Source: Alphaproteobacteria bacterium (GTDB lineage Bacteria; Pseudomonadota; Alphaproteobacteria; SP197). From it: a DNA stretch of 64,000 nucleotides. The stretch covers positions 608,001-672,000 of the forward strand of contig OZ245842.1 in NCBI GenBank assembly GCA_965228895.1. The letters run 5' to 3'. Made by a program: the position numbers and the translations under genes. The notes under the pieces are model-generated. The model was not told where the DNA came from. It saw only the letters and a list, made by a program, of their open reading frames with translations, and made no database searches. Positions 32,860 through 57,328 of the stretch are shown here, in pieces. How positions within the stretch are numbered: position 1 is the stretch's first letter; the number at the start of each line of letters is the position of its first letter.

Positions 32860-33122
32860 CAGCGTCTGTCGTCAGAGCACGCGGGAGGGAGCTTAGCCCG
32901 CCAAGGAGCGTTGTTAGGCTGCTGTACATGAAGGTGAAGGGCCGCATGCTGCGCACGTCCGTGTGGCCGCGTCCTTCGCCAGCCATAAAAAGTGGACGCG
33001 CATACAACTGAAACAATTATGCGCGGCTGCTGACACCGAACTGAAATTTCGGATCACAATCTTTCCTACCGTAGGACAACTTTTCGTGCGCTCGCCGCAC
33101 TTTCTTACGGATGGAGATTGCC

Positions 33123-33914
33123 ATGACCCATTGTAAATCAGTCCTTATCGCTCTTGTTGCCGCCGCTGGACTTTCGCTCGGCAGTGTGTCGAGCGCTCAG
33201 GCGGTACAGAGTACGTCGGAGGAGATTCCCCTCATCGAATGGGACACGACACTGGTCACGTTCCAGTTCGACAACGACAAGTTCCTCGGTCAGCGTTTCA
33301 CCGCCAAGTGCAAGCCGGCCAATGTCGACGACATGGACGAGACCGTCTATGGCACCGATGTCTATCCCAGCAACAATTCGATCTGCGTCGCCGCCGTGCA
33401 CGCTGGTCTGGTTGACCGGGACGGCGGCGTTGTCACCGTTCAGCTCAATCCCGGCGCCGAAGAGTACGTTGGCAGCAGCCGTAACGGCATTGATACACAG
33501 AGCCTGCCTGGAACACAGCGCAGCATGGTCTTTGTGACCGGACCCGAGGCTGGCGCCATCGATCAGGTGCTGCTCGACAACGTGCAGAGGATCGACTGGG
33601 ACACCAAGTTTACCCGCACAGGCCTTGCCTATGAGCAGTTGATCGGTCAGCACTTCGTCTTCAGCTGCCCGGAAGCGCCGAGCAATCTCAACTCCCGTCG
33701 GGTTGTCGGCACGGACTCCTATGCCTTTGACAGCATGATCTGCCGCGCCGCGGTCCATGCCGGTGCCATCACCACCGACGGTGGGCTGGTGACCGTCCAG
33801 ATGGATTCGGGCAAGGAGCGGCTGGTCGGCAGCATCCGCAACGGCATCGAGACCAAGGACGGCCCCGGCGGCCACCGCACGCTCTCGTTTGTCGAAGCGA
33901 CGACACAGAACTAG
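33123..33914 (+). CDS. Exported protein with two LCCL domains
   Basis: Signal peptide ending AQA; two units VYGTDVY..NNSICVAAVHAG and VVGTDSY..DSMICRAAVHAG, each followed by GS.RNGI; GGAG RBS before ATG 33123. Confidence 0.85.
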   Translation: MTHCKSVLIALVAAAGLSLGSVSSAQAVQSTSEEIPLIEWDTTLVTFQFDNDKFLGQRFTAKCKPANVDDMDETVYGTDVYPSNNSICVAAVHAGLVDRDGGVVTVQLNPGAEEYVGSSRNGIDTQSLPGTQRSMVFVTGPEAGAIDQVLLDNVQRIDWDTKFTRTGLAYEQLIGQHFVFSCPEAPSNLNSRRVVGTDSYAFDSMICRAAVHAGAITTDGGLVTVQMDSGKERLVGSIRNGIETKDGPGGHRTLSFVEATTQN

Positions 33915-34105: not shown

Positions 34106-34197
34106 GCCGTGGCAAATTGCCAAGTTGACAGTGCCGTTGACGACTTTGCCGTTGTAGAGTGAAGCCCCGAACCGGCTTCACAGAGATGATACGGCAG

Positions 34198-34980
34198 ATG
34201 GCAGGACACAACCTACTGCATGGCAAGCGCGCGCTCGTTACGGGAGCGGGAAGTGGCATCGGGCGGGCGATCGTGCACGCGTTCGCGCGTGAAGGCGCGC
34301 AGATTGCCGTCAGCGACGTCGACTTGGATCGTGCAAAGGCCGTCGCCGGCGAGATCGGTTCGGCGGGATCGCCGTTTCGCCTTGATGTCACCGATGCCGC
34401 GGAGACCAGGTCGGTCGTCGAGGCGGCTGTCGAGCAACTTGGCGGCCTGGATCTGGTGGCCGCGAATGCCGGGATTTCGACCATGAACGCTGTGGTCGAC
34501 CTGACCGAGGAGGAATGGGATGCCAACATGGCGGTCAACGCCAAGGGCGTCTTCCTGACCAACCGCGAAGCCGTGCGCCAATTCCTGGCGACGGGCACCA
34601 AGGGTGTCATCGTCAACACCGCGTCGCTTGCCGCCAAGATCGGGGCACCGTTCCTGGCCCACTACGCAGCCAGCAAGTTTGCCGTTGTCGGCTTTACCCA
34701 GTCGCTGGCCAAGGAGGTCGGCGAACATGGCATCCGCGTGAACGCTGTGTGTCCGGGCTACGTGCGGACATCCATGCAAGAGCGGGAACTCGCCTGGGAA
34801 GGCAAGCTGCGCGGGATGACGCCGGAGGCGGTCTATGACGAATACATCGCGACGACACCGCTGGGCCGCATCGAGGAACCGGAGGATGTCGCCGAGATCG
34901 TGGTCTTCCTGGCCAGCGACCTCTCGGGCTTCCTGACCGGTGAAGCGATCAACGCCAGCGGTGGCGTGTTGATGGATTAG
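34198..34980 (+). CDS. SDR, polyol/sugar-alcohol dehydrogenase-like
   Basis: TGAGSGIG, ANAG, YAASK, CPGYVRT. Confidence 0.9.
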   Translation: MAGHNLLHGKRALVTGAGSGIGRAIVHAFAREGAQIAVSDVDLDRAKAVAGEIGSAGSPFRLDVTDAAETRSVVEAAVEQLGGLDLVAANAGISTMNAVVDLTEEEWDANMAVNAKGVFLTNREAVRQFLATGTKGVIVNTASLAAKIGAPFLAHYAASKFAVVGFTQSLAKEVGEHGIRVNAVCPGYVRTSMQERELAWEGKLRGMTPEAVYDEYIATTPLGRIEEPEDVAEIVVFLASDLSGFLTGEAINASGGVLMD

Positions 34981-35002
34981 TTCTCTTCTTTGGGGGATAT
35001 CG

Positions 35003-35812
35003 ATGGGTTGGTTGAAGGATCTGTTGGGCAGCGATAAGCCGGTCATTGCGATGGCGCATCTGCCGCCGCTGCCGGGCTCACCGCTGTATGATGCCAAGGG
35101 CGGCATGAACGCGATCGTCGATTATGTCTCGCGTGATATCGAGGCGCTGCAGGCCGGCGGCGTCGATTGCATCATGTTCGGCAACGAGGGCGATCGTCCT
35201 TATCTTCTGAAGGCCACACCGGAGAGCCTGGCAGCAATGACCTCGGCGGTCGCGGCGGTGAAGAACCAGATAATGGTGCCGTTCGGCGTCAACTATCTGT
35301 GGGATCCCGTCGCCACGGTGGCCCTGGCGGTCGCGACCGGTGCCGTGTTCGCACGCGAGATCTTCACCGGTGTCTATGATTCCGACATGGGCCTGTGGGC
35401 GCCCGATGCGGCAAGCGCCCTGCGTTTACGTCACGACCTCGGGCGCGACGACCTTAAGCTGCTGTTCAACATCAATGCCGAGTTTGCTGCGCCGGTCGGC
35501 GACCGGCCGATCGAAGCGCGCGCCAAGAGTGCCGTTTTCTCGTCACTCGCCGATGCGGTTTTGGTGTCCGGCCCCATGACCGGCCAGCCGGTTGATCAGT
35601 CTAACCTGCAGCGGGTCAAGGAAGCCGTCGGCGACACACCGGTCTTCGCCAACACCGGCTGCAACATCGACAACATCGCCGACATCCTGTCGACAGCCGA
35701 CGGATGCGTGATCGGGACCCATTTCAAGGTCGATGGCGACACCTGGAATCCTGTCGATTCCGACCGGGTGCGGCGTTTCATGGAGGTCGTGGCGAAGGTC
35801 CGCAACCCGTGA
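35003..35812 (+). CDS. BtpA/SgcQ family TIM-barrel protein
   Basis: MAHLPPLPGSP, NEGDRPY, PFGVN, VSGPMTG, NTG, GTHFKVDG. Confidence 0.9.
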   Translation: MGWLKDLLGSDKPVIAMAHLPPLPGSPLYDAKGGMNAIVDYVSRDIEALQAGGVDCIMFGNEGDRPYLLKATPESLAAMTSAVAAVKNQIMVPFGVNYLWDPVATVALAVATGAVFAREIFTGVYDSDMGLWAPDAASALRLRHDLGRDDLKLLFNINAEFAAPVGDRPIEARAKSAVFSSLADAVLVSGPMTGQPVDQSNLQRVKEAVGDTPVFANTGCNIDNIADILSTADGCVIGTHFKVDGDTWNPVDSDRVRRFMEVVAKVRNP

Positions 35813-37332
35813 GCCTGTTGCTCGGGCTGGATATCGGGACGACATCGACCATCGGTATTTTCATCGACACCGATGGCGTCGTCGTCGCGACGGCATCGCG
35901 TCCGAGCGAGCTGATTTCCAAGCACGCCAATTGGGCTGAGGAAGATCCTGCGCTCTGGTGGTCGAACGTCTGCGCCATCGTGCCCGAGCTCCTGGCGGCA
36001 ACGGGCGCTAAAGCTGATCAGATTGCCGCCGTCGGCGTCACCGGCATGGTGCCGACCGTGATCTTGCTGGATGAGGAGAATGAGCCGCTGCGCTACTCGA
36101 TCCAGCAGAACGATGCGCGCGCGATTGACGAAATCGACGCAATGAAAACCGCGATCGATCCCGACGACTACTTTGCGCGGACCGGCGGCAGCATCAACCA
36201 ACAGCTTGTCGCGCCGAAGCTGCGCTGGTTGGAACATCACGAACCCGACCACATGGCTCGGGCAAAAACGGTGTTGGGTTCCTATGACTACATCACCGCG
36301 CGCCTGACCGGCTCCCTTTCGGTCGAGCAGAATTGGGCGCTGGAAGCGGGGTTCCTGGATCTTGGTGGCGGCCGTCTTGATGACAGGTTGATTAACCTTG
36401 GCGGCATCACGCCAGACCACCTGCCGCCACTGCGCGCCTCCCACGATGTCGTCGGTGAGGTGACGGGGGACGCCGCGGCGCAAACCGGCTTGGCCGCCGG
36501 GACGCCAGTTGTGGCCGGGTGCGCCGATCATATCGCGTCGGCGTTTGTTGCCGGCGCATCGCGGGACGGCGATCTCGTGGTTAAGTATGGGGGCGCCGGC
36601 GATATCATGCTGTCGACAAGCCGCGCGGTCACCGATCCCCGCATGTTTATCGACTACCACATCGTGCCCGGCCTTTTTTTCACCAACGGCTGTATGGCTG
36701 CCAGCGGCAGCGTGCTGAACTGGATCGCTGCCCATCTCGCCAAGGCCGAGGCGGACGAGGCGCGGGCGGCCGGCCAGTCCGTGCACGCTTATCTGGACGA
36801 CCAGGCGCAAGCGCTGCCGCCCGGCGCCGGTGGTATTGTTTTGCTGCCCTATTTCCTGGGCGAAAAGACGCCGCTGCACGACCCCCACGCGCGCGGCACC
36901 CTGGTCGGCCTCGGCCTGCACCACGGGTTGCCCAATATCTGGCGATCCGCGCTCGAATCCGTCGCCTTCGGTTTTCGTCACCATACCGAGGTGTTTGCCG
37001 AGATGGGGCAGGATGTCGGGCGGGTTCTCGCCTGCGATGGCGGCGCGGCGAGCGATCTGTGGGTGCAGATCACGGCCGATGTTTTGGATAAACCGATCGA
37101 GCGCCTGCTGTCACACCCCGGTTCCAGTCTGGGCGCGGCCTTTGTCGCGGGCATGGGTGTAGGCGCACTCGACGATTGGGCGGCAATCACCGCCTATGTC
37201 GAGCCGGACCGGACTTTCGAGCCCGACGCCCGCAACGTTGAGATCTATCGCGATGCCTACGGTCTCTATCGCGAGACCTACGAACGGCTCAAGACGCTCT
37301 ATCCGCAGATCGGTGGTTTGCCCGCAGGCTGA
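35809..37332 (+). CDS. FGGY-family carbohydrate kinase (xylulokinase-like)
   Basis: LGLDIGTTS, QNDAR, AGCAD, LPYFLGEKTP, DGGA.S.LW.QI.ADV; GTGA overlap. Confidence 0.92.
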   Translation: MSLLLGLDIGTTSTIGIFIDTDGVVVATASRPSELISKHANWAEEDPALWWSNVCAIVPELLAATGAKADQIAAVGVTGMVPTVILLDEENEPLRYSIQQNDARAIDEIDAMKTAIDPDDYFARTGGSINQQLVAPKLRWLEHHEPDHMARAKTVLGSYDYITARLTGSLSVEQNWALEAGFLDLGGGRLDDRLINLGGITPDHLPPLRASHDVVGEVTGDAAAQTGLAAGTPVVAGCADHIASAFVAGASRDGDLVVKYGGAGDIMLSTSRAVTDPRMFIDYHIVPGLFFTNGCMAASGSVLNWIAAHLAKAEADEARAAGQSVHAYLDDQAQALPPGAGGIVLLPYFLGEKTPLHDPHARGTLVGLGLHHGLPNIWRSALESVAFGFRHHTEVFAEMGQDVGRVLACDGGAASDLWVQITADVLDKPIERLLSHPGSSLGAAFVAGMGVGALDDWAAITAYVEPDRTFEPDARNVEIYRDAYGLYRETYERLKTLYPQIGGLPAG

Positions 37333-37337
37333 ACCGG

Positions 37338-38441
37338 TCAGTTGCCGGCAATCGCCTGACCGGTTTCGGCATCAAAGAAATGGGCGCGGTCGAGGTCGGC
37401 ATAGAGCTGAAGGTCGGAACCGGCGGATGCCGCGAAATCACGGCTTAGTCGCGCCGAAAGTTCCTGGCCGTTTGCCATGCTTGCGACGAGAACCACCTCT
37501 GGCCCCAAGGCTTCGACCGCGATCACATTGATCGCAATGGGGGCGTGGGCGGCGCTCGGCGGATCGACATAGAGATCCTCGGGACGAACGCCGAAGGTGA
37601 TCTTTGAACCCTTGTGGTTTGCCAAGGCCGCTTGCCGTTGCGACGGGATCGGTAGCTTGACGGGGCCAAGGTCCACCTCGTCGATGCCGTTGGGACCGCC
37701 AAGCTGGGCGTCGAGAAGGTTCATCGGCGGGCTTGCCAGGAAACCGGCGACAAAGGTGTCGACGGGGTTGCGGTAGACGTCGAGCGGCGGGCCGACCTGG
37801 ACGATTCTGCCGTCGCGCATGACGCAGATACGCTCACCCATCGTCATGGCTTCCACCTGGTCGTGGGTGACATGGACGACGGTGCGGCCGAGTTCTCGAT
37901 GGATCTTGATCAGTTCCGTGCGCATGGCCGCACGCAGCTTGGCGTCCAGGTTGGACAGCGGTTCGTCGAACAGGAAGGCCACGGGGTCGCGCACCAGGGC
38001 GCGGCCGAGCGCGACGCGCTGCTGCTGGCCGCCGCTCAGCTCCTTTGGGCGGCGCGCCAGCAGCTCCTCGATGCCCAACATGGTCGCGGTCTGCTTGATC
38101 CGCCGGTCGATTTCATCGCGCTCGACCTTGCGCAGCTTAAGGCCGAACGCCAGGTTACCGGAGACGGTCATATGCGGATAGAGCGCGTAGTTCTGGAACA
38201 CGACGGCAAGGTCCCGGTCGGCCGGATCGACGTTGTTGACGACCTTGCCGTCGATCGACATCTGGCCGGATGTGATCTCCTCAAGGCCCGCGATCATACG
38301 AAGCGTCGTCGACTTGCCGCAGCCCGACGGACCCAGAAGCACCATGAACTCGCCGTCCATGATCTCCAGGTCGATGTTGTCGACCGCCACGACATCCTGG
38401 CCGTAGATCTTGGTTATGCCCTCTAGAGTAATCTGCGCCAC
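37338..38441 (-). CDS. Carbohydrate ABC transporter ATP-binding protein (MalK/UgpC-like)
   Basis: GPSGCGKST, VFQNYALYPHM, LSGGQQQR, DEPLSNLDAKLR. Confidence 0.95.
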   Translation of the reverse strand: MAQITLEGITKIYGQDVVAVDNIDLEIMDGEFMVLLGPSGCGKSTTLRMIAGLEEITSGQMSIDGKVVNNVDPADRDLAVVFQNYALYPHMTVSGNLAFGLKLRKVERDEIDRRIKQTATMLGIEELLARRPKELSGGQQQRVALGRALVRDPVAFLFDEPLSNLDAKLRAAMRTELIKIHRELGRTVVHVTHDQVEAMTMGERICVMRDGRIVQVGPPLDVYRNPVDTFVAGFLASPPMNLLDAQLGGPNGIDEVDLGPVKLPIPSQRQAALANHKGSKITFGVRPEDLYVDPPSAAHAPIAINVIAVEALGPEVVLVASMANGQELSARLSRDFAASAGSDLQLYADLDRAHFFDAETGQAIAGN

Positions 38442-38453
38442 GGTGGCGAACTC

Positions 38454-39344
38454 CTATTTCAACGAACGCATGTAGCGGTAGAGGTAGGTGGTCAACACCA
38501 GGACAATGACCAGCAGCCCGACCGACATGGCCGACGCGCGTCCGATATCCAGGCCGAAGAACGCGGCGCGGTAGATGAAGTAGCTGATCAGGTCGGTTGC
38601 CGTACCCGGTCCGCCTTTCGTCATGATGAAGATGATGTCGAACGTCTTGATCGCGAAGATCAGGCGCAAGAGCAGGGCGACCATGATCACCGGCCGCATC
38701 AACGGCAGCGTGATGTGGATGAAACACCGTAGCGCGGACGCACCGTCCATCCGCGCGGCTTCATAGGGTTCGCGCGGCAGGGCAGCCAGCCCAGCCAGAA
38801 GCAGGATCGCCATGAACGATACCTGATGCCAGATGTCGACCATCACGACGGTCCAGAACGCATTCGTCGCGTTGCCCAGCCAGTTGACAGGACTGATGCC
38901 GGCAAGTCCGATCGCATAGTTGACGATGCCGAGCTCGGAATGCAGCAGCATGCGCCACAACAGGCCAACGACAACCGGGTTGACCAGAAGCGGCGCCAAC
39001 AAGATCAGGTAGTAGATCGTCTTGAAACGTTCGACCTTGTTAAGCGCCAGCGCGACCGAGAAACCGATGATGAACTCGATGACGACGGAGGCCAGCACGA
39101 ATTTGACCGTGACCCACATGGATCCCGGCAAGTACTCCTCGTCCGCCGCCTCTTCGTAGTTCTCCAAGCCGACAAAGTCCTCATGGACCGGCGTCAGCAG
39201 GGTGTAGTCGTAGAAACTGGTAAAGAGGGCAAAGATCAGCGGGAACATGATGACAAGCATCAACGCGGCAAGACCGGGCGCCGTGAGCCAATACCCAAAG
39301 CGCCGGTCCCGCCGCGCGAGCGTCAGCGTGTCAGCCGTTGCCAA
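38454..39344 (-). CDS. Carbohydrate ABC transporter permease (MalF-like)
   Basis: FVGLENY, YEAARMDGA, TKGGPG; several TM segments. Confidence 0.93.
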   Translation of the reverse strand: MATADTLTLARRDRRFGYWLTAPGLAALMLVIMFPLIFALFTSFYDYTLLTPVHEDFVGLENYEEAADEEYLPGSMWVTVKFVLASVVIEFIIGFSVALALNKVERFKTIYYLILLAPLLVNPVVVGLLWRMLLHSELGIVNYAIGLAGISPVNWLGNATNAFWTVVMVDIWHQVSFMAILLLAGLAALPREPYEAARMDGASALRCFIHITLPLMRPVIMVALLLRLIFAIKTFDIIFIMTKGGPGTATDLISYFIYRAAFFGLDIGRASAMSVGLLVIVLVLTTYLYRYMRSLK

Positions 39345-39368
39345 CGTTCTGAATCCGCTGTCTTACCG

Positions 39369-40649
39369 TTATTCCGAGATCTTGCCGTCTTTAACCAGCA
39401 AGGCTCGGAGTTCTTCTTGGGCGTCCGCCATGGCTTCGGGCACCGGTTTTTCGCCGGTCGCCGCCAGGTTCAACTCACGGCCGACTTCCTCGACGAACTC
39501 GGTCGTATAGGTGAAGACCGGGAAGTCCTGGGTGCCGGCAAGGATCTCACCCAAGATCGGATAATAGGGGCGCGCGGCCACCACATCCGGATCGGTGAAG
39601 ATCTGTGCCTGGGTCGGCGCGCCGCCCAGAAGCGCCCGCTCCTTGGCGATCTCCTGTGACTCCGCCCACTTGATGAACTCCCAAGCCGCGTCCTTGTTCG
39701 GGCTGGAATTGGGGATCGCCCAGCCCCAACCGCCATTCAGGCCACCGCCCGGATTGGGCGCGATGCCGACCTTGCCGGCGACCGTCGAGGCTTCCGGATC
39801 CTCGAATCCGGCATAGAGAATGTTGAACGTGACAAAACTATAGGCCTTGCCCTGGGCCATCACGTTGAACGCCTCGTCGAAACAATAGGCTTCCGAACCC
39901 GGAGGACTGTAGTTCTCCACGGCTTCGCGATAGTACTCCATCGCCCGGATCGCCTCGTCACTGTCGAGCAGCGGGTTCCAGTTCTCGTCGTGATAACGGC
40001 CACCCTGGGAATAGAGGTAGTTCGCCCACTGCATGGAGATGCAGTCGCCGCGCTGACCCTGGATGACAGTGCCGAAGAAGTCGCGTTCGCCGTCGCCGTT
40101 TTCGTCACGGGTGAAGAACTCGACCTGCTTCCAGTATTCGTCCCACGTCTCGGGAACCCTCAAGTCGATACCGTAGGCTTCCTTGAACGCCGCCTGTTCG
40201 GCGGGATCGTCGATCAGATCCTGACGATAGATGACGGCCATGGAGTAGTTATAGAACGGCAGCATATAGAGCGTGCCGTCGACGCGGCCGACCAGATCCA
40301 TCAGCTTGGGCACATAGACGTCGACATCGACGCCGTCGCGTGCGACCAGGTCGTCCAGCGGCATCAGCCAGCCGGCCTTGGTGAACTCGCCGACCCAATA
40401 GAAGTCAACGACGATCAGGTCGTAGCTGCCTTCCGGCGCGATGAGCTGGGGCACCAGCTTCGAATGCATGTCGATATAGCTGATCGCCTCGATCTCGACG
40501 TCGATGCCGGTTTCTTCCACGAACTGCGGCAACAGTTCCTGGATGTAACGGGTGTCCGGCACCGTTTCCATAAGGATACGGATGGTCTCCGCCTTGGCGA
40601 CACTGACGCTCAGCGCCAATGCCGCGATTACCGCTAGGACAAACTTCAT
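39369..40649 (-). CDS. Carbohydrate ABC transporter solute-binding protein (CUT1)
   Basis: Signal peptide, F..ETGI.V, PETWDE, GGWGWAIP..S.NKDAAWEFIKW. Confidence 0.93.
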   Translation of the reverse strand: MKFVLAVIAALALSVSVAKAETIRILMETVPDTRYIQELLPQFVEETGIDVEIEAISYIDMHSKLVPQLIAPEGSYDLIVVDFYWVGEFTKAGWLMPLDDLVARDGVDVDVYVPKLMDLVGRVDGTLYMLPFYNYSMAVIYRQDLIDDPAEQAAFKEAYGIDLRVPETWDEYWKQVEFFTRDENGDGERDFFGTVIQGQRGDCISMQWANYLYSQGGRYHDENWNPLLDSDEAIRAMEYYREAVENYSPPGSEAYCFDEAFNVMAQGKAYSFVTFNILYAGFEDPEASTVAGKVGIAPNPGGGLNGGWGWAIPNSSPNKDAAWEFIKWAESQEIAKERALLGGAPTQAQIFTDPDVVAARPYYPILGEILAGTQDFPVFTYTTEFVEEVGRELNLAATGEKPVPEAMADAQEELRALLVKDGKISE

Positions 40650-40734
40650 AACTCACGTCCTCCCTGTTTGAAGTTTTGCTCCACGTGTGCCCGGCCATGG
40701 ATCGTCCCGTCCCCGGCCAGGCGAACTCGTTAAG

Positions 40735-41553
40735 TCATTTCAGCGCCCCCAGTGAGAGTCCCTTGATGAGATAGCGCCGCATGAAGGGCAGCAGGATGAA
40801 GACTGGCAGGATGGCACAGATGGTCGCGGCCGAAAGCAAAGCGATATCGACGCCGCGATGGGTCTGGAATGATGACAGACCGACTGGCAGCGTGTTGGTT
40901 GACGGCCCACTGATGATCAACGCGAACAGGAACTCGTTCCAGCTCAAGATGAAGGACAACAGGCCGGCAGCCAGGATTCCGGGCGCCGCAACCGGCAAGG
41001 TGATGCGCAGGAAAGCCTGGAAGCGCGACGCGCCGTCGATCCTTGCGGCTTGTTCCAAAAGCGCGACATCGCCTTCGAAGAAGGCCACCAGAAGCCAGGC
41101 CAGGAACGGCAAGCTGATCGTCATGTGGGCGATGATCAGGCCGGGCAATGTGTTCAGGAGCGAAGCCTTCAAGAACAACGTGAACAACGGCAGCACCAGG
41201 ATCACCGGCGGCAGCATCTGACTCGACAAAACGAACAGGCGCAGAGGCAGGCCGCCGGTGTTGTAGCGCGCGAACGCATAGGCAATCGACGCCGCCATCG
41301 GCAGCGCGATGATCGTCGCGCCAAGCGCGACCGTGACGCTGTTCAGAAAGTAGTTGAAGAACGGGTAACCGGTGAAGATCTCGACAAAATTAGCAAGGCT
41401 GGCCTGGCCCCATTCCGGCGGTATCTTATAGGCCGTCAGCTTGTCGGTAAGCGCGACGCGAAGTAGCCATAGGAGCGGCAACAGGATGGTTGCGCTGAAG
41501 GCGATCAGAACACCATGCGGCAAAAGCCATGACAACACCCCCCGACCGCGCAT
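40735..41553 (-). CDS. Carbohydrate ABC transporter permease (MalG-like)
   Basis: LEQAARIDGA, SWNEFLFA, TLPV. Confidence 0.93.
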   Translation of the reverse strand: MRGRGVLSWLLPHGVLIAFSATILLPLLWLLRVALTDKLTAYKIPPEWGQASLANFVEIFTGYPFFNYFLNSVTVALGATIIALPMAASIAYAFARYNTGGLPLRLFVLSSQMLPPVILVLPLFTLFLKASLLNTLPGLIIAHMTISLPFLAWLLVAFFEGDVALLEQAARIDGASRFQAFLRITLPVAAPGILAAGLLSFILSWNEFLFALIISGPSTNTLPVGLSSFQTHRGVDIALLSAATICAILPVFILLPFMRRYLIKGLSLGALK

Positions 41554-41781
41554 TGCCTATCCCCAAGACAAAAACAGCGTTACCGATGACCGGTGATGGT
41601 CACCAAAAAGGGCATTCCCCACGTTCACCTATCACCCCGATCCACCCCGTCGCCCGGTTCATGACACGTGCATTCAGGCGCTGGGTGATTTGCTAAATGT
41701 CAACAGGTAAGATCTCTTGTCATCCTAGCGCAATGGCAGGGCAGCACAAGGCGATACGTCACTTCTGAGGATCCAAATACG

Positions 41782-44049
41782 ATGAATAAATCACCGTCGG
41801 CCAACCGATGGAAACGCTACGACGTGTGGGATGACCGTCCCTTGCGCCTCGACGGATTTGCACCCGATAGCCCCGAGGACGGGTTCCGTGCAACCGACAG
41901 CCCGACCGACCCGTCACCCTCACTGCGTATCGATGATGGCGCGGTCGTCGAGATGGATGGCGTGGAGGCCGACCGCTTCGATATGATCGACGCCTTCATT
42001 GCGCGCTATCACCTTGATCTCGAGGTGGCGGAGGAAGCGATGGCCGTCGAGAGCGCGGATTTCGCCCGCCGCCTGATCGACGTCAATGTACCGCGTGATG
42101 ACGTTATCCGGTTGGCGCGCGGCATGACGCCGGCGAAACTGTGCGAGGTCATGGCGTGCCTGAACACGCTGGAGCTTTCGTTTGCGCAGACCAAACTTCG
42201 CGCGCGCAAGGCGCCGGGCAATCAGGCGCACGTGACCAACGCGAAGGATGATCCCGTGCAGATGGTTGCCGATGCGGCGACGGCGGCGGCCATGGGATTT
42301 GATGAAGTCGAGACCACCATGCGGGTCGCGCGCAATTCATGGTCCAATGCGCTTGCCTGTTTGATCGGCGCGACGGTCGGCAAACCGGGAACCCTTGTGC
42401 AGTGCGCCTGCGAAGAAGCCGAAGAGCTTAAGCTTGGCATGGCAGGCCTCACCTCCTATGCCGAGACCATCTCGGTCTATGGCACCGAGGGGTCGTTCAT
42501 CGACGGCGATGATACGCCGTGGTCGAAGGCGTTTTTGATTGCGGCCTATGCGTCGCGCGGCATCAAGTCGCGGTGCACGTCCGGTGGCGGCTCCGAACTC
42601 CTGATGGGGTTCCACGATGCCAAGTCACTGCTGTACCTCGAAGCGCGATGTCTTTGCGTACAGCGCGGCATGGGTGTTCAGGGTACGCAAAACGGCGGCA
42701 TAGACGGCGCGCCGGTAACGTCGTCGATCGCCGGCGGCATGCGCGAAATCCTGGCTGAAAACGTTCTGGCCGCTTTGTTGGACCTGGAATGCGCGTCTGG
42801 CAACGACACGCGTATCAGCGAGTCGGAGATCCGCGTCGGCGCCAAGATCATGCCCCATCTCATGTCCGGCACCGACTTCCTTTGCTCCGGTTTCGGGTCG
42901 GTGCCGGCTTACGACAACTCGTTCGCTGCGTCGCTGTTCAACGCCGAGGAGATCGAGGATTTTCTGACACTGCAACGCGATTTCGAGTTGGACGGCGGTC
43001 TGCGGCACATGCCGGAAGATGATGTCATGACATTGCGCCGCCGCGCTATTGATGCGTTGAAAGCCGTCTATGGCGAGCTGGGCCTTGCCGAGCTGAGCGA
43101 GCAACAAAAGACAAGCGCGTGTTATGCCAGCGGCTCCCAAGACACCGTGGCGTTTCGTTTCACGGAAGTCGGCCGGATCTCCGAACAGATCCGCGACCGC
43201 GGTATCACCTTGATCGACGTCATCGGCGCGTTGGCGCGAAGCGGGTTTGAAGATGTCGCGGAAAACCTGCTGGCACTGTGGCGCCAGCGCGTCAGCGGCG
43301 ATTATCTGCAGACAGCGGCGATCGTACGGGATGGCGTGGTCGTCAGCGCCGTCAACGATCCCAACGACTATGCCGGACCGCAGACGGGCTATCGCCTTTC
43401 ACCGGACCGCCACCAAGAGATCGCCCGGGTACGCGGCATCATGACCAAGGATCAGATCGTCGAGCTGGAGGAGCGCCATGCGACAGCGGAACGGCGGCGC
43501 TACCACATGGAGCCGGTCGGTCCGGCCGCAAAGGGCAATGGCGTTAACGAGGTTGTCATCGGGCTCAGCCCTGCCTTCGGAGAACGCCTGCACCGCACGA
43601 CATCGGGACTCTATCTGTCGCAAGTGCTGGCGGCCTTGGTCGACGGTATCAAGGAAGGTGGCGGGACAGCCCATGTGGTCCGCATACGCCACACCGCCGA
43701 CACATCGTTCCTGGGCCTGACGGCGGCTAGACTTTCCAACTCCGGAATCGGTATCGGCATTCAGGCGAAGGGAACGGCCGTCATTCACACCGCGCAGGAT
43801 GAACCGCATATGAACCTTGAGCTTTTTTCCCAGGCGCCGATTACGACTCTCGACCATTATCATGGCATGGGCCGCAATGCTGCCGCCTATGCGCAGGGTC
43901 TCGATCCCGAGCCGATCAGTATTCCCTATCGCGGCGAGGCATTGGGCGCGCGCTATCATGTTCAGACGTCGCTGATCTATGCCATCGAAACGGCGATGTT
44001 GGACCCCGACGCCGAACCGCAAACGTTGGAGGTGACGTTTCATGGCTGA
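41782..44049 (+). CDS. pduC: Adenosylcobalamin-dependent diol/glycerol dehydratase family, fused large (alpha) and medium (beta) subunits
   Basis: Alpha motifs NQAHVTN, GFDE.ETT, YAETISVYGT, DGDDTPWSK, QRD..DGGL, GDYLQT, SAVND.NDY.GP.TGYR, then beta motifs EVVIGLSPAF, SGIGIGIQ.KGT.VIH, NLELFSQAP, GRNAA.YA in one 755-aa frame. Confidence 0.93.
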   Translation: MNKSPSANRWKRYDVWDDRPLRLDGFAPDSPEDGFRATDSPTDPSPSLRIDDGAVVEMDGVEADRFDMIDAFIARYHLDLEVAEEAMAVESADFARRLIDVNVPRDDVIRLARGMTPAKLCEVMACLNTLELSFAQTKLRARKAPGNQAHVTNAKDDPVQMVADAATAAAMGFDEVETTMRVARNSWSNALACLIGATVGKPGTLVQCACEEAEELKLGMAGLTSYAETISVYGTEGSFIDGDDTPWSKAFLIAAYASRGIKSRCTSGGGSELLMGFHDAKSLLYLEARCLCVQRGMGVQGTQNGGIDGAPVTSSIAGGMREILAENVLAALLDLECASGNDTRISESEIRVGAKIMPHLMSGTDFLCSGFGSVPAYDNSFAASLFNAEEIEDFLTLQRDFELDGGLRHMPEDDVMTLRRRAIDALKAVYGELGLAELSEQQKTSACYASGSQDTVAFRFTEVGRISEQIRDRGITLIDVIGALARSGFEDVAENLLALWRQRVSGDYLQTAAIVRDGVVVSAVNDPNDYAGPQTGYRLSPDRHQEIARVRGIMTKDQIVELEERHATAERRRYHMEPVGPAAKGNGVNEVVIGLSPAFGERLHRTTSGLYLSQVLAALVDGIKEGGGTAHVVRIRHTADTSFLGLTAARLSNSGIGIGIQAKGTAVIHTAQDEPHMNLELFSQAPITTLDHYHGMGRNAAAYAQGLDPEPISIPYRGEALGARYHVQTSLIYAIETAMLDPDAEPQTLEVTFHG

Positions 44050-44473
44050 CAAACGCGATCAGGTCGAAGCGCTCTATCCGGCCAGCGAAAAACAGCAGGA
44101 TCGATTGACCACACCCGGCGGCCACACACTCAGCGATCTGACACTGCCGAACGTGTTGGCGGGAGGGCTTGGGACCGGTGATCTCGGTATCTCACCGGAT
44201 GCCTTGCGCCTGCAACGCGATGTCGCCGAGGCGACCGGCCGGTCTTGTTTGGCAGAGAACTTCGAGCGCGGTGCGGAACTGACCGGTGTCTCTCAGGACG
44301 AGATCTTCGCGACCTACAATCTGTTGCGTCCGGGACGCGCCGAAAGCAAACAGGAGCTTCTCGACCTCGCGCGGCGCTATCGTGACGAACACAACGCGCC
44401 CGAGATCGCCGGTCTGATCGAAGACGCCGCGGAAACGTACGAGAGACGTGGGCTGTTTCGTACCCGCTACTAG
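44042..44473 (+). CDS. pduE: Diol/glycerol dehydratase small (gamma) subunit
   Basis: YP.SEK, TP.G..L.DLTL, ENFERGAEL, YNLLRPGR, A..YE.RG; overlaps upstream stop. Confidence 0.9.
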   Translation: MADKRDQVEALYPASEKQQDRLTTPGGHTLSDLTLPNVLAGGLGTGDLGISPDALRLQRDVAEATGRSCLAENFERGAELTGVSQDEIFATYNLLRPGRAESKQELLDLARRYRDEHNAPEIAGLIEDAAETYERRGLFRTRY

Positions 44474-44534
44474 TTAGCGAGGGCGCCGACGACGCCTATC
44501 AATTGCCCAACATCAACGTCTGGGGAGGAAACCG

Positions 44535-44936
44535 TTGGTTACGCATGAGAGTTTCACCAAGTGGCTCGACGCCTATGGCAGTGCCTGGGTTAACCAGAAC
44601 CCGGACGGCACCCTGGCTCTCTTCACCGATGACGCCACCTATATGTACACGCCGTTCCACAAGATCATGAAAGGCAAGGACGAGATTCGCCGCTACGTCG
44701 AGAAGGGCGCCGTTGGTCTACAGGAGGATATCGAATTCGACTACGAGGTCCTGGCCGTCACGGACGCGTACGGTATTAACCGATGGAAAGCGGCCTTGAC
44801 GTGGAAGGAGACCGGCGAGCGCCTCCACTTTGACGGCATCTATCAGGTCTTCTTGAACGACGACAACCTATGCCATCGCTTCGACGAGTGGTGGCATGCA
44901 AATCCACCGCTACCCGAAGACAACGCACCGGAATAG
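44535..44936 (+). CDS. SnoaL-like/NTF2 family protein
   Basis: WLDAYGSAW....LFTDDATY...PF...G..EI, DG......DD..C.RF.EWW; GGAGG RBS before TTG. Confidence 0.82.
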   Translation: MVTHESFTKWLDAYGSAWVNQNPDGTLALFTDDATYMYTPFHKIMKGKDEIRRYVEKGAVGLQEDIEFDYEVLAVTDAYGINRWKAALTWKETGERLHFDGIYQVFLNDDNLCHRFDEWWHANPPLPEDNAPE

Positions 44937-44971: not shown

Positions 44972-46504
44972 TCAAGCGATCGCGCCGACGACGCGTACGC
45001 GGGCGCGCAGGCTGTTGCCCGGCATATAGGCAAGCGGCAGGTCCTCAACCTCGACCAACTCCAGGCTTTCGGCATCCGCGCCCGCCTCGACCGCACGTCT
45101 TTCGGCGATACCACGCGCCTCGGCGATAGCGTCTTCGCGCGACAGACCTTGAAAGATCTGGTCGCACTCACCGGAGATCTGGGCAATCGCAGCGCCGACC
45201 GCATTGGCGACCTCGCCGTGTTCGACATGGATGACGTCGCTGACGCCGGCAATCTGATCAGGCACCAGAAAGGCGCCGCCGCCGACGGCAATGACCGGCA
45301 CGTCGCCGGCTTCGGTCTTCATGCGGTCAATTGCGACCGCGGTCATCTCGCGCATGGCCGCTATTGTTTCCTCGACCATCGCCTTGGGCAGGTCATCGAC
45401 CTTGTCGCGATCACCCAGGTCAATCAGGCCCTGGGCAACGGCGATGTCGGTTGCCGTCAGGTCGGGCCCGCCAAAGACGAGCCCGCGCTCGGTCAGCCGG
45501 TAGCCCGTACTCTCGGGGCCGATGGTGAGGGGATCTCTACCAATGAGCGTGCCGCCGCCGAGCGCGATGGAAAGTAGATCCGGCATCCGGAACAAGGTTC
45601 TGACACCGCCAATCTCGACGACGTTGTTGGCTTCGCGCGGAAAACCCGATTTCAGCATGCCGATATCGGTCGTTGTGCCGCCGACATCGACGACCATGGC
45701 GTCGGAAAGCCGGGACAGGAATGCCGCGCCGCGCATACTGTTGGTCGGGCCTGAAGCGAAACTGAACACCGGATACTTTTCGGCGACGTCGGCCAGCATC
45801 ACCGTGCCGTCGTTCTGGGTCAGGTAAAGCTGCGCTGTGATACCGCTGGTTTCGATCGCTTTGGTGAAGGCGGCTGTCGTCTTCTTGGCGAGGTCCTGCA
45901 GGCTGGCGTTCAGCAACGTGGCGTTCTCGCGTTCCAAGAGCCCGATGCGACCGAGCGCGCTGGAGCGGGTAACCGCGACGTCCGGACATTCCTCGGCAAG
46001 GATCGCGGCGGCCTGGTCCTCCAACTCGCTCGTCAGCGGTGAAAAAACAGAGGTGACGCCGACAGCCGTATAGCCGGCATCGCCAATGCGCTTTGCCGCC
46101 TCGCGCATGCCGGCTTCGTCAAACGGGGCAATGGGACGGCCGTCATACTCGTGGCCGCCCTGCAGCATGACGATCTCGCCCCGGACCTCCTCAGCGAGAT
46201 CGTCCGGCCAATCGATGAACGGCTCCAATGATGCGCTGGCCGGCAGGCAGATGCGAATGGCCGCGACCTTCGCGACGTCGCGCCGCTGGGCAACGGCGTT
46301 GGTGAAATGCGTGGTGCCGATCATGACGGCATCCAGGCCGGTCGGGTCGGCCGATGTCTGGGCCAAGACCTGCTTCAGGGCCTTGGTAATGCCCGACATC
46401 ACGTCTTCGGTCGTCGGCGTCTTGACCGAGCCGACGATGACATCGTCCTCGACCAGGACCGCGTCCGTGTTGGTGCCGCCGACGTCGATGCCGATGCGTT
46501 TCAT
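44972..46504 (-). CDS. Short stand-alone hydantoinase/oxoprolinase A-type (ATP-binding) protein, DUF917-associated
   Basis: GIDVGGTNTD, GTTHFTNA, ERENA, SGPTNSMRGA, DVGGTTTD, ANAVGAA; 510 aa; no B subunit adjacent. Confidence 0.9.
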   Translation of the reverse strand: MKRIGIDVGGTNTDAVLVEDDVIVGSVKTPTTEDVMSGITKALKQVLAQTSADPTGLDAVMIGTTHFTNAVAQRRDVAKVAAIRICLPASASLEPFIDWPDDLAEEVRGEIVMLQGGHEYDGRPIAPFDEAGMREAAKRIGDAGYTAVGVTSVFSPLTSELEDQAAAILAEECPDVAVTRSSALGRIGLLERENATLLNASLQDLAKKTTAAFTKAIETSGITAQLYLTQNDGTVMLADVAEKYPVFSFASGPTNSMRGAAFLSRLSDAMVVDVGGTTTDIGMLKSGFPREANNVVEIGGVRTLFRMPDLLSIALGGGTLIGRDPLTIGPESTGYRLTERGLVFGGPDLTATDIAVAQGLIDLGDRDKVDDLPKAMVEETIAAMREMTAVAIDRMKTEAGDVPVIAVGGGAFLVPDQIAGVSDVIHVEHGEVANAVGAAIAQISGECDQIFQGLSREDAIAEARGIAERRAVEAGADAESLELVEVEDLPLAYMPGNSLRARVRVVGAIA

Positions 46505-47607
46505 GCTGCGTCCTTCCCATTCGTCAGGGGGTGAGGGGAGTGATAGTCCATGTCATAGCCGAACGCCCGTGGCCCGACCACTTTGAGGGCGTGGGGCGTG
46601 GTCAGGACCGGTGCGGCGGGCAGTGAGACGATGACGACACGCTGGCCGTAGCGGATCGATTCCGTGCCGATCGCTTCGCCGTTGACCGCATCCAGAATGC
46701 AAATCAGATCGGGCACCATGACGCGGATCTCATTGTCGATGCTGCCGATCGTGAACTCGTTTTGAAAGTCGACGTCGAAGGTCTGACCGGCATAGCCGTC
46801 ACTTCCCGCGATGCGTGCCTTGCCCCGCACGAAGCCGTCCGTCGTGCGCCGGGCGACATCGACCACCTTGCCGCTGAACAAACGTAGACCGGCTTCGGCA
46901 TCAAGTACCGCATCACTGGGGTCCAGGTGACGACGCCGGGCCTCGGTGACCGCGCGGCCCAGGCGTATGGCGCGGCTGATGGAGCCGATGACGGCGTGGT
47001 CGCGAATCTGACGGCCGGTGCGCGGCGGTTTGCAGGTCGCGATCATCGCGCCGGTTTCCGTACAAAGCTTTCGGCCGATCCGCTCGGTCCATCGCGCGCT
47101 CGCGGTCTTCAGCAGCAGGACCTCGTTGTCACGGATGTCGGCCATGGCGATCGGATAAAGCGGCAGGTCGGCAATGACGAAGCTGGACATCTGCATTTCC
47201 GGGAAGGCGCGCCCGCGCGGGTCGGCGTCAAGCAGAGGAATATCCAACAGGGCCGCAACGACCAGAGGCAGAATGCCGTTTTCACCACCGATCTCCGACG
47301 ACATGACGGCGCGGAACGGCCGGCCCGTCAGATCCTGCATCATCTCGATAGGCCGGCAGATCTGCGCGGGATCGGGCAGTCGTTCCTTGGTGACCAGCGG
47401 CGCACCCATGAAACCGACCTCGGCGACCAGATCGTCGTTATCGAGGTCACATGGCTCGATCATTCCGACCCGCTTGCCCTCGCCGTAGAGTTTCTGAATG
47501 TTCAGCAGCTCGAGATAAGGATGGGTCCCACCACCGGTCCCCAAAATGCCCGTGCCGATCGCCAGAGCGGGCAGGTCATCGGCTTCGATGGGACGACGGC
47601 CCGTCAT
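46501..47607 (-). CDS. DUF917 family protein (paralogue 3 of tandem)
   Basis: LGTGGG, MGAP, EIGGEN, GRAFPE.QM, FQNE, VPDLIC, RYG, GPRAFG. Confidence 0.88.
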   Translation of the reverse strand: MTGRRPIEADDLPALAIGTGILGTGGGTHPYLELLNIQKLYGEGKRVGMIEPCDLDNDDLVAEVGFMGAPLVTKERLPDPAQICRPIEMMQDLTGRPFRAVMSSEIGGENGILPLVVAALLDIPLLDADPRGRAFPEMQMSSFVIADLPLYPIAMADIRDNEVLLLKTASARWTERIGRKLCTETGAMIATCKPPRTGRQIRDHAVIGSISRAIRLGRAVTEARRRHLDPSDAVLDAEAGLRLFSGKVVDVARRTTDGFVRGKARIAGSDGYAGQTFDVDFQNEFTIGSIDNEIRVMVPDLICILDAVNGEAIGTESIRYGQRVVIVSLPAAPVLTTPHALKVVGPRAFGYDMDYHSPHPLTNGKDAA

Positions 47608-48698
47608 GGGTCTGTTCCGAACAGCGACACGTAGTCGATGTCGTATCCGAAGGCGCGCGGGCCAACGAAGCTGAGACCGGCGTCGGAGGTCAGGATATCG
47701 GCGGCGGCAATCGCAACGATGCCAACGCGCAAACCATACCGAATGGTCTCGGTCCCGATCGCTTCGCCGGTATCGGCATCGAGGATGCAGATGAGGTCGG
47801 GCACCATCACCTTCAGCGCGCTATCGATCCAGGCGATGGTGAACTCGTTCTGAAAATCAACGTCGAAGATCTGACCTTCAAAATCATCCTGACCTTCAAT
47901 CCGGGCGCGCCCGCGCACGAAACCTGCCGTGGTTTGCCGCGCGACATCGACGACCTTGCCGCGGAACAGCAACAGGCCGTCTTCGGACTCCATGACCGCG
48001 GCGATGGGATCCGTGTGGGCCTTGCGTGCGCGGCGCACGGCACCGCCCAGCCGAATGGCGCGGCTGACGGTGCCGTGAACCGCATGGTCCTTGATCTCGC
48101 GCCCGGTTCGCGGCGGCCGGCACGTTGCGGCGATCGCACCCATCTCGGTGCAGAGGCGCCGGTTGATGCGCTCGACCCAGAGCGGCCCGCCGGCCTTCAT
48201 CATCAGGACCTCATTGTCGCGGATATCGGCCATGGCGAAGGGATAGAGCGGCAGGCCGCGAATCACGAAGCTCGACATCTGCATTTCGGGGAAGGCCCTG
48301 CCCATGCAATCGGCATCGACCACCGGGAGGTTCAGGAGAGCGGCGACCAGGAATGGCAAGACGCCGTTCTCCGCGCCGACTTCGCCCGCCATGACCGCAC
48401 TGAAGGTGGCGCCGGTCGCCTGGCGCATCATCTCGACCGGCCTGAGCGTGTGATGGGGATCGGGAAGGCGTTCCTTGGTGACCAGCGGCGCACCCATGAA
48501 GCCGAGTTCGGCAACGTGGTCATTGTCGTTGAGGTCATCGGGCGCAATCAGCGAAACACTGCGACCGGCGCGATAAAGCTTCTCGATGTTCAGCAGCTCG
48601 AAATAAGGATGGGTACCGCCGCCGGTTCCCAGAATGCCCGTCCCGATAGCGAGACTTCGCAAGTCATCGAAGGCCACAGGCGTGGTTGTCGCCATCAT
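47604..48698 (-). CDS. DUF917 family protein (paralogue 2 of tandem)
   Basis: Same motifs (EVGAEN variant); start overlaps upstream stop (TGATG). Confidence 0.88.
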   Translation of the reverse strand: MMATTTPVAFDDLRSLAIGTGILGTGGGTHPYFELLNIEKLYRAGRSVSLIAPDDLNDNDHVAELGFMGAPLVTKERLPDPHHTLRPVEMMRQATGATFSAVMAGEVGAENGVLPFLVAALLNLPVVDADCMGRAFPEMQMSSFVIRGLPLYPFAMADIRDNEVLMMKAGGPLWVERINRRLCTEMGAIAATCRPPRTGREIKDHAVHGTVSRAIRLGGAVRRARKAHTDPIAAVMESEDGLLLFRGKVVDVARQTTAGFVRGRARIEGQDDFEGQIFDVDFQNEFTIAWIDSALKVMVPDLICILDADTGEAIGTETIRYGLRVGIVAIAAADILTSDAGLSFVGPRAFGYDIDYVSLFGTDP

Positions 48699-49780: not shown

Positions 49781-49789
49781 GGCGGCCTC

Positions 49790-50383: not shown

Positions 50384-50391
50384 GGCAGGCG

Positions 50392-53238: not shown

Positions 53239-53252
53239 GGACCTATGCTGCC

Positions 53253-53990: not shown

Positions 53991-54006
53991 GGTTTCCTCC
54001 GACCGA

Positions 54007-55131: not shown

Positions 55132-55287
55132 GTGTGTCTCTCCCCCTGGTCAGATAACGCCGCCCGGGAATCGGGCAGACCGCTGACATTCTCGCCCGGT
55201 CCGAACAACCATCTGCGGTTGCTCTACGGAGCGATTCCCGGCCTGATTTCGAAGACCGGTTCGCCGGTCAACCGGTCGGAACTGCGC

Positions 55288-55303
55288 TACAAAGCGCTTT
55301 GTA
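55288..55303. promoter_or_regulatory. LacI-family operator
   Basis: Perfect palindrome TACAAAGCGCTTTGTA with central CG, just downstream of the minus-strand promoter and adjacent to a LacI-family gene. Confidence 0.8.
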
Positions 55304-55310
55304 TTGGTGA

Positions 55311-55340: not shown

Positions 55341-55413
55341 GGATTCTTGCAATTCTCTCGCGCCACGTGGTCGTTCGGCACCGGCGCCAACGGCCAAGGA
55401 CGAAGGTTTCGTT

Positions 55414-57325: not shown

Positions 57326-57328
57326 GTC

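Follow-up and report, generated by a model that had tools for sequence, protein, structure and literature searches.

A fused B12-dependent diol dehydratase beside a carbohydrate ABC importer in an alphaproteobacterial genome: pocket signature, gene settings and candidate substrates

Which compound is dehydrated by a B12-dependent enzyme that is encoded back to back with a sugar importer, and does this enzyme form one pathway with the genes around it? The locus that raises this question lies within a 64,000-nucleotide stretch of an alphaproteobacterial genome (contig OZ245842.1, positions 608,001 to 672,000 of the forward strand; hereafter the window, whose own numbering is used below). The source genome is a single contig of 5.53 Mb with a completeness of 98.7%. 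Two blocks can be distinguished: block A (34159-41553), with genes for a short-chain dehydrogenase/reductase (SDR), a BtpA/SgcQ-family protein, an FGGY kinase and an ATP-binding cassette (ABC) importer, and block B (41782-44473), with genes for the fused alpha-beta subunit and the gamma subunit of an adenosylcobalamin (AdoCbl)-dependent diol/glycerol dehydratase. An earlier, sequence-only reading had named eleven features here, all of which were recovered at their positions by Pfam and NCBIfam profile matches, and had joined the two blocks into one sugar pathway. The reading that we favour, if tentatively and with a little less than even confidence, is that block B encodes a dehydratase which needs no reactivase, acts on glycerol or a comparable small diol and has repeatedly been recruited to the vicinity of CUT1 polyol importers, that block A is a separable pentitol-like module and that the SnoaL protein encoded downstream is a bystander. 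The enzyme type is known and widespread; new here are a clade-wide pocket signature, gene settings that follow the dehydratase tree and the independence of block A.

The alpha-beta gene (41782-44049, plus strand) encodes 755 aa, in which PF02286 spans residues 9-555 (E 2e-224, 746 bits) and PF02288 residues 596-709 (E 5e-23, 82 bits), and the NCBIfam model NF011979 is matched with 821 bits (cut-off 788). The gamma (small) subunit gene (44042-44473, plus strand; PF02287 E 1e-36, 126 bits) overlaps it by 8 nt, and the large, medium and small subunit domains of an AdoCbl-dependent diol/glycerol dehydratase (PduCDE/DhaB) were all found. Residues 9-751 align end to end with the engineered fused enzyme of Klebsiella pneumoniae 9vig (E 3e-222), and the two proteins are identical at Q142, H144, E171, E222, T223, Q297, D336, S363 and F375 (K. 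pneumoniae numbering, counted along the printed alignment), which we take to be the Ca-binding and catalytic residues. Klebsiella DhaB1-3 and K. oxytoca PduCDE (1iwp, 1dio) have the same three domains (E 5e-183 and 2e-175 for the large-subunit part), and with the Ca and catalytic residues all kept, the same radical 1,2-OH shift is expected; in the window, alpha and beta form one polypeptide. Judged from its sequence, the window enzyme is an intact fused AdoCbl dehydratase.

For comparison, a set of 103 loci (100 without three duplicates) was assembled from the window, 17 close loci, 5 loci from related genomes and 80 from an alignment-based scan. Open reading frames (ORFs) were called with a crude GC3-based picker and clustered by BLASTP, and the clusters were named by Pfam and NCBIfam. 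The picker skips or merges genes (e.g. BtpA/SDR in L011 and FGGY in L002), and the family counts from ORF clusters are therefore lower bounds, with key families cross-checked by tblastn. The tree (FastTree, SH-like support only; MAFFT alignment at a faster setting) contains 99 rows, i.e. 95 fused dehydratases and 4 outgroup representatives, from which the fused clade splits with 100% SH-like support; discussed below are the window clade (clade X, 8 rows), clade Y (13 loci) and the largest one, clade Z (61 loci, 60 tree rows). The gamma gene follows the fused gene in 94 of the 103 loci (tblastn). The fused form is widespread and no curiosity: a protein search gave at least 7999 clusters at 90% identity with E <= 1e-30 (canonical large subunits included), among the matches listed 120/120 proteins carry both subunit domains (the named ones being mostly Alphaproteobacteria), and the genome scan gave at least 589 species-level relatives, of which 80 loci, almost all from Alphaproteobacteria or Pseudomonadota, were kept. 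In a library of representatives at 50% identity, just a few full-length clusters were present.

Across the 95 fused-clade rows, Q142, H144, E171, E222, Q297, D336 and S363 are kept, one N-terminally truncated row being gapped at Q142. The side of the pocket that faces C3 of the substrate is altered in comparison with DhaB and PduCDE: Ser302 (Ser301 in K. oxytoca) is replaced by Asp308 and Gln337 (Gln336 in K. oxytoca) by Thr343, followed by Arg344, so that the window protein has neither of the canonical residues Ser301 and Gln336 (K. oxytoca numbering). Positions 306-311 read G-I-D-G-A-P in 95/95 rows, where the 4 outgroup representatives show [SA][IV]SC, and the second motif is D-[T/A]-R in the fused clade vs D-[QA]-x in the outgroup. 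Position 343 is Thr in the ABC-linked clades and Ala or Ser in clade Z, and position 344 is Arg nearly throughout, with few exceptions; the fused representative P0003 (47% identical) lacks the G-I-D-G signature and reads as outgroup. With alpha and beta in one frame, a separate gamma subunit and both motifs, the window enzyme belongs to this fused alphaproteobacterial clade.

What these substitutions do is suggested by work on the canonical enzyme. According to the review PMC7674605, Ser301 forms a hydrogen bond with the C3-OH when glycerol is bound in its inactivating pose, and the k_inact with glycerol falls from 1.15 per min to 0.22 in S301A and 0.081 in Q336A (Table 1). This slow inactivation provides an ordinary explanation for the pocket changes, namely that the enzyme can do without a reactivase. 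The changes may also be compatible with an altered substrate, and the remodelled C3-facing side (Asp308, Thr343, Arg344) fits what the sequence-only reading had suggested. One alternative of this kind is that the substrate is a C3-substituted 1,2-diol with a charge or an amine (sn-glycerol 3-phosphate, a glycerophosphodiester, 2,3-dihydroxypropanesulfonate or 3-amino-1,2-propanediol), whose C3 substituent would be read by Asp308 and Arg344. We consider it improbable. It would account for the clade-wide replacement of Ser301 by Asp and of the residue after Gln336 by Arg (the latter with few exceptions), but it presumes that both side chains face the substrate, and no paper tying B12 dehydratases to dihydroxypropanesulfonate in this way was found in the portions of the literature accessible to the searches.

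The second feature that bears on inactivation is the reactivase itself. The window enzyme differs from DhaB and PduCDE in that no DdrAB/DhaFG/PduGH-type reactivase was found for it: the DdrA-type profile PF08841 has no match in its genome and none in the six genomes carrying the fused clade (0/6), whereas it scored above the cut-off in 4/5 genomes fetched with the canonical representative P0004 as a positive control, and the search is sound for this reason. A second PF02288 copy was likewise not found in the genome, the sole match being the fused gene itself. Cofactor supply is represented by two B12 adenosyltransferases, one PduO-type and one CobA-type. No facilitator, aldehyde or alcohol dehydrogenase or bacterial microcompartment (BMC) shell gene was found among the window ORFs between 27 and 64 kb, and the scanned proteins of the locus thus differ from dha and pdu loci in having no facilitator, DhaT, PduP, PduQ or shell protein. 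Together, the three subunit domains, the kept catalytic residues and the absence of a reactivase from the search bear out the fused AdoCbl dehydratase that had been read from the sequence. A hydantoinase-A-like gene downstream (44972-46504), which gave weak MutL/GlmL-like N-terminal matches, was considered as a stand-in reactivase and dismissed: the only other matching locus is L033 (28% identity), and in the window the gene is the first of a DUF917 operon that runs on the opposite strand. One of the control genomes, L175 (Tropicibacter sp., G049), had no DdrA-type reactivase above the cut-off, and other reactivase-less lineages may therefore occur outside the G-I-D-G clade.

Neither the fusion nor the missing reactivase is new, both being described in PMC4777399 and PMC7674605; the fusion noted by the sequence-only reading is real, but these two traits were already in print. 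PMC7674605 cites Liu et al. 2010 for alpha-gamma enzymes of Mesorhizobium loti and Mycobacterium smegmatis, in which alpha carries a beta-like extension, and Martins-Pinheiro 2016 (PMC4777399) adds Hyphomicrobium, calls the active site "slightly different" and reports reactivation-factor genes to be absent in Mesorhizobium, Mycobacterium and Hyphomicrobium. These fused glycerol dehydratases share the fusion, the lack of reactivation-factor genes and the altered active site with the window enzyme, but the Mesorhizobium and Hyphomicrobium loci, although inside the same fused clade, fall into clades Y and Z and not into clade X, and they were framed as a glycerol dha regulon, with no ABC, FGGY or RMM-like contexts in the accessible text (PMC4777399). 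In the Mycobacterium RMM2 microcompartment loci, diol dehydratase genes, whose role is described as unclear, are accompanied by shell genes and by genes for an amino-alcohol kinase, a class-III aminotransferase, an SDR and a permease (Axen 2014, PMC4207490); clade Z shares this make-up, whereas the window locus has none of these partners. Engineered K. pneumoniae fusions (9vig, 9vi2 and others) match the window enzyme in the order of domains and almost in length (754 vs 755 aa), but differ in their artificial linker and canonical active site and were studied together with a reactivase; in cell lysate, inactivation of one stop-codon fusion variant was slower (PMC7674605). No description of the invariant pocket signature, of the three types of context or of the FGGY link came up in the searches; later BMC catalogues may list alphaproteobacterial RMM-type loci with a dehydratase.

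Gene context was found to track the dehydratase phylogeny, with three settings. Clade Z is nearly all amino-alcohol or RMM-like (APH kinase/class-III aminotransferase genes in 39 of the 61 loci, BMC shell genes in 12, CUT1 components in 2), and its dehydratases probably make small aldehydes. In clade Y, CUT1 components occur in 11/13 loci, the common order, all in one direction, being permease-SBP-permease-dehydratase-gamma-ATPase-SDR (SBP, solute-binding protein). In the window clade, a CUT1 importer stands beside the dehydratase in 7 of the 8 rows and on a second contig in the eighth (G001, same genus as the window), and an FGGY kinase lies within 10 kb in 7/8. The link to importer and kinase thus holds within the window clade (8/8 and 7/8).

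Among the 100 non-duplicate loci, the partner families are SDR (64 loci), APH kinase and/or class-III aminotransferase (49), an isochorismatase-family gene directly after gamma (38), a Pfam-less gene of about 398 aa heading a Pot-like ABC operon (30), CUT1 components (23), amino-acid permease (19), FGGY (12, with two further by tblastn) and BMC shell genes (12). BtpA stands beside the dehydratase in 4/100 loci (window, L011, L030 and L031) and SnoaL in the window only (1/100; both by tblastn), and neither can be kept as a conserved partner. The question of whether the clade always carries ABC, SgcQ and FGGY genes, which the sequence-only reading had left to be checked, has therefore a divided answer: yes for ABC and nearly so for FGGY within the window clade, no for SgcQ, and no for CUT1 in clade Z. 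The protein of about 398 aa (e.g. L046:13687-14883 and L089:13331-14638), encoded right after the dehydratase genes, matches neither Pfam nor NCBIfam and is probably an undescribed solute-binding protein family.

The kinases near the dehydratase belong to two subfamilies of FGGY, one being true GlpK beside GlpD. In the window and L011 the kinase is XylB-like. The nearest relatives of the window enzyme (L001, L002, L008, L009 and L014; 77-79% identical) have kinases only 26-27% identical to that of the window, the scanned example L008 being GlpK-like (494 bits, below the cut-off) and sitting with a 2-hydroxyacid dehydrogenase. In clade Y, the dehydratase of L077 adjoins genes for glycerol use, namely those for GlpK (706 bits against a cut-off of 498) and GlpD (784 bits), in an operon; L093 has a GlpK above the cut-off, and L101 resembles L077, judged by its layout. 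A true GlpK next to GlpD points to glycerol over a larger sugar.

Several loci show the dehydratase inside an importer operon: in L073, L074, L093, L104 and L105, the genes for dehydratase and gamma are inserted into a CUT1 operon, with the permease genes on one side and the ATPase gene on the other, and are followed in L093 and L105 by genes for an SDR, an APH-like kinase and a class-III aminotransferase (in L105 also a GntR regulator) and in L073, L074 and L104 by only part of this tail. The window genome has an RMM-like locus of its own (L150, G000:C1:~4142460-4153450), complete except for a dehydratase, with a Pfam-less SBP-like gene, a Pot-like ABC system, an SDR, an APH kinase, a class-III aminotransferase, an acylating aldehyde dehydrogenase and BMC shell genes. 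Loci of this kind contain a fused dehydratase in many other Alphaproteobacteria.

Block A starts with a single plus-strand operon. Its SDR (34159-34980, with in-frame ATGs also at 34186 and 34198, the last of which had been chosen earlier) is polyol/sugar dehydrogenase-like (PF13561 E 2e-59, PF00106 E 8e-57) and clears one NCBIfam subfamily cut-off only (glucose 1-dehydrogenase, 223 vs 215 bits); orthologues with 69-78% identity are present in L011, L030, L031 and L137-L140. The BtpA/SgcQ-family TIM-barrel protein (35003-35812; PF03437 E 3e-80, 270 bits; TIGR00259 273 bits vs cut-off 153) is followed by the FGGY kinase gene (35809-37332; PF00370 and PF02782), whose GTG start overlaps the BtpA stop by 4 nt (GTGA), an arrangement of translational coupling. 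The kinase falls into the XylB (xylulokinase)-like group, with 300 bits against the TIGR01312 XylB cut-off of 380, and its nearest solved chain is 3IFR (491 bits), listed under XylB (xylulokinases) in PMC3245297. For BtpA, no solved relative was found by sequence and no functional paper on the family in the literature searches. Foldseek with the AF2 model (pLDDT 90) was tried as a route to its reaction and set aside, returning only generic phosphate-binding barrels with TM 0.5-0.6 (thiamin-phosphate synthase, TrpA, RPE and class I aldolases). Elsewhere in the genome (G000:C1:3955918-3956673), BtpA/SgcQ has another, distant paralogue with 36% identity.

The importer genes run on the minus strand and, being of family-1 SBP, two BPD_transp_1 permeases and a MalK-type ATPase with OB/TOBE tail, form a CUT1 carbohydrate ABC importer. 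They comprise, in the direction of transcription, a MalG-like permease (40735-41553; PF00528), the periplasmic family-1 SBP (SBP_bac_1; 39369-40649; PF01547 E 3e-42), a UgpA/MalF-like permease (38454-39344; PF00528; UgpA model 149 bits, below the cut-off) and the MalK/UgpC-type ATPase (37338-38441; PF00005, PF17912 and PF08402; NF008653 461.7 bits vs cut-off 432), which is convergent with the kinase gene at a distance of 5 nt. The nearest solved chains of the SBP are 1eu8 (trehalose/maltose-binding protein), 5iai ('sugar ABC transporter') and 4rya ('sorbitol' SBP), with E 5e-43 to 2e-33, the latter two being Agrobacterium-type sugar/'sorbitol' SBPs. It has no NCBIfam equivalog match, and these relatives are too distant to name the ligand. 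Judged by their strong family matches, the genes of the locus are not chance ORFs.

Alphaproteobacterial polyol modules combine a CUT1 importer with an SDR polyol dehydrogenase and a xylulokinase. Block A resembles them in its family-1 SBP near sugar/sorbitol-type SBPs, its SDR and its XylB-like kinase, but differs in the additional BtpA/SgcQ gene and in that kinase and SBP remain below every curated equivalog cut-off. The importer also bears on the C3-substituted diol introduced above. In its favour, the ATPase passes the UgpC subfamily model, one permease is most UgpA-like, a sulfoquinovosyl-glycerol SBP is among the weak PDB matches of the SBP, a glycerophosphodiester phosphodiesterase gene lies upstream of the dehydratase in 4 Anaerolineales loci, and nearly half of the loci (49/100) have APH kinase and class-III aminotransferase genes near the dehydratase. 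However, the UgpC model matches any MalK-like ATPase, the SBP has no UgpB match and no sulfonate or phosphonate genes were found at the window locus.

Whether block A and block B belong together can be judged from genomes that have only one of them. An orthologous SBP was found in 14/41 related genomes, each with a BtpA orthologue 69-93% identical to that of the window; seven of these 14 have no dehydratase found with the window query, and in two (G021 and G023) it is located elsewhere, beside another, paralogous importer. The layout of SDR-BtpA-FGGY with the convergent ABC genes is identical in the three genomes checked (G016, G019 and G023), and in the two annotated ones (G019 and G023) a FIST-domain gene follows the importer in the place of the dehydratase. 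Block A is therefore an independent unit, and the single unit of SDR, BtpA, FGGY, ABC and dehydratase genes that had been proposed from the sequence is not supported. Other findings speak for a genuine link: an orthologue of the second importer set is missing from the window genome (best matches 33% and 40% identity), and the dehydratase gene of G008 comes straight after that for the ATPase, both on one strand. Signs of decay were seen in two places: L031 (G004:C2:144904-145668) has a dehydratase remnant (residues 4-258) beside an intact block A, and the BtpA orthologue at G006:C76:19023-19820 has an in-frame TGA. Another genome of the same genus, G002, has neither block.

From here it is a short step to the view that the adjacency is meaningless, the enzyme being a stand-alone 1,2-propanediol or ethylene-glycol dehydratase whose propionaldehyde or acetaldehyde enters general metabolism. 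The two blocks are transcribed divergently from a separate promoter region, block A is independent, both blocks are missing from G002, the downstream flank varies within the genus (where the window has SnoaL, G001 has an AhpD-like gene) and most of the fused clade (61 loci) is found with amino-alcohol genes that would yield C2/C3 aldehydes. On the other hand, the CUT1 importers that recur as neighbours are of three or more non-orthologous kinds (SBP identities of 30-40%) and are arranged in various ways, same-strand embedding included, two dehydratase lineages stand by an orthologous importer, and the RMM-like microcompartment locus of the same genome, 3.5 Mb off, has no dehydratase. We rate this view as rather unlikely.

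The idea put forward by the sequence-only reading, a larger imported polyol or its phosphate as substrate and a deoxy-sugar as intermediate, can be worked out as follows: a C4-C6 polyol, either free or phosphorylated by the FGGY kinase, would be dehydrated to a 2-deoxy-aldose (phosphate) for the SDR and BtpA, both blocks being one pathway. The CUT1 importer beside the dehydratase in the window clade (8/8) and clade Y (11/13), the clade Y operons in which dehydratase genes can sit between permease and ATPase genes and the XylB-like kinases next to the dehydratase in three dehydratase subclades (in one frame in the protein P0174, see below) are in agreement with this. So are the depositor-named sorbitol SBP among the nearest solved relatives of the SBP, a pocket in which Gln336 -> Thr/Ala widens the C3 side while Asp308 and Arg344 add polar groups, and the BtpA fold, a phosphate-binding barrel of the aldolase/epimerase kind. 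Against it stand the dehydratase-free block A in half of the genomes (7/14), the presence of BtpA with the dehydratase in so few loci, the non-specific Foldseek matches of BtpA, the GlpK or GlpK-like kinase partners elsewhere and an identical pocket signature in the 61 amino-alcohol/microcompartment loci of clade Z. As a whole, we hold this single pathway to be unlikely. A narrower form is equally doubtful in our judgement, in which the ABC-linked branches (window clade and clade Y) would, without a reactivase, dehydrate by B12-radical chemistry an imported polyol that is neither glycerol nor 1,2-propanediol (a C4-C6 sugar alcohol or the phosphate of one, or else a 1-substituted glycerol), and a 2-deoxy-aldose-type product would be passed to central metabolism by the XylB-like kinase, the SDR and, in some genomes, BtpA. 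Of the earlier interpretation, the fused dehydratase and the adjacency of importer and FGGY kinase in its own clade remain, while SgcQ and SnoaL as conserved partners and a fixed unit with block A are not supported.

A small diol as substrate of a recruited dehydratase, the reading favoured here, could operate as follows; the substrate of block B, the role of the substituted residues and the coupling to the importer are what we infer. In block A, read as a polyol/ketose module, the CUT1 importer would bring in a sugar alcohol-like solute, the SDR would oxidise it, the XylB-like FGGY kinase would phosphorylate the product and the BtpA/SgcQ barrel would probably act on a sugar phosphate. In block B, a small vicinal diol, most likely glycerol or a close C3 analogue, would arrive via the neighbouring CUT1 importer and be converted by a radical 1,2-OH shift to a 3-hydroxy aldehyde, with Ser301 -> Asp and Gln336 -> Thr/Ala lowering substrate-induced suicide inactivation, so that no reactivase would be needed. 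The tie between the two blocks would then be common uptake or regulation and not a fixed sugar pathway, with SnoaL outside of it.

Several observations weigh against this scheme. The literature searches found no assay of a natural enzyme of the fused clade, and Asp and Arg differ from the assayed Ala substitutions and could instead bind extra hydroxyls or a charged group. In L093, the dehydratase lies inside one CUT1 operon with a separate glp ABC operon alongside, and the importer around the dehydratase may therefore carry something other than glycerol. The window clade and the 60-64% identical dehydratases of genus g3 both adjoin an orthologous block-A importer, which argues for a real functional tie to block A. 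The window dehydratase adjoins a XylB-like kinase and not GlpK, and a kinase of the window type stands beside the dehydratase in L011, L030, L031, L098 and L105 (53% identical in the last two); such recurrence is hard to explain with plain glycerol as substrate. Moreover, the 1269-aa protein P0174 (public sources ncbi, lgn) carries a XylB-like FGGY kinase (68% identical) and a fused dehydratase (66%) in one frame, which may be either a true fusion or a read-through and counts for the kinase link drawn from the sequence; a search for longer fusions found no proteins >1322 aa, which is weak evidence. Finally, an enzyme for 3-hydroxypropanal is not evident at the locus, and the SDR that follows gamma in the nearest relatives with a downstream flank (e.g. 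L001, L008, L009, L011 and L014) has no orthologue in the window genome (best match 39% identity).

Since no assayed member of the clade is apparent, one of the major ways in which soil and marine bacteria use B12 lacks a known substrate. If the enzyme turns over glycerol without a reactivase, it would represent a natural solution (Asp301, Thr or Ala336, followed by Arg) relevant to the production of 3-hydroxypropanal and 1,3-propanediol, and if it acts on a larger polyol, a new class of B12 reaction in sugar catabolism. The three mapped gene settings supply candidate substrates as well as cultured strains (Mesorhizobium, Ancylobacter, Dongia and Roseovarius).

The divergent spacer between importer and dehydratase (41554-41781, 228 nt) is 84% identical in G001 and cannot be aligned to L011, its conservation being limited to the genus. 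It contains a palindrome, TGACC-N6-GGTCA, which is kept in G001 and may be an operator, and no regulator gene was found in the locus. A sigma-70 consensus scan gave 0 sites, Rfam over 30-50 kb gave a chance miRNA match only and none in the spacer, and terminator-like sites were not more frequent than in shuffles. Downstream of gamma lies the gene for the SnoaL_2/NTF2-like protein (44535-44936, plus strand; PF12680 E 1e-9), whose position is taken in G001 by the AhpD-like gene; SnoaL was rejected as a pathway member, being beside the dehydratase in the window only.

The wider window holds two further groups of genes. A cyclic-amide island extends over 44972-58453 and contains the short hydantoinase-A-like gene mentioned above, three tandem DUF917/S-Me-THD paralogues, a fourth one at 57329-58453, two Asp/Glu/hydantoin racemases and an ABC system; upstream of it, two hydantoinase A/B pairs (9104-12750 and 16673-20283) and a BKACE gene (13559-14389) were found. 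At 30007-33914 are genes for an animal-type haem peroxidase of 950 aa, which contains 11 stretches of RTX Ca-binding repeats, and, following it, for a protein with two LCCL domains, animal-type haem peroxidases and LCCL domains being unusual in a bacterium.

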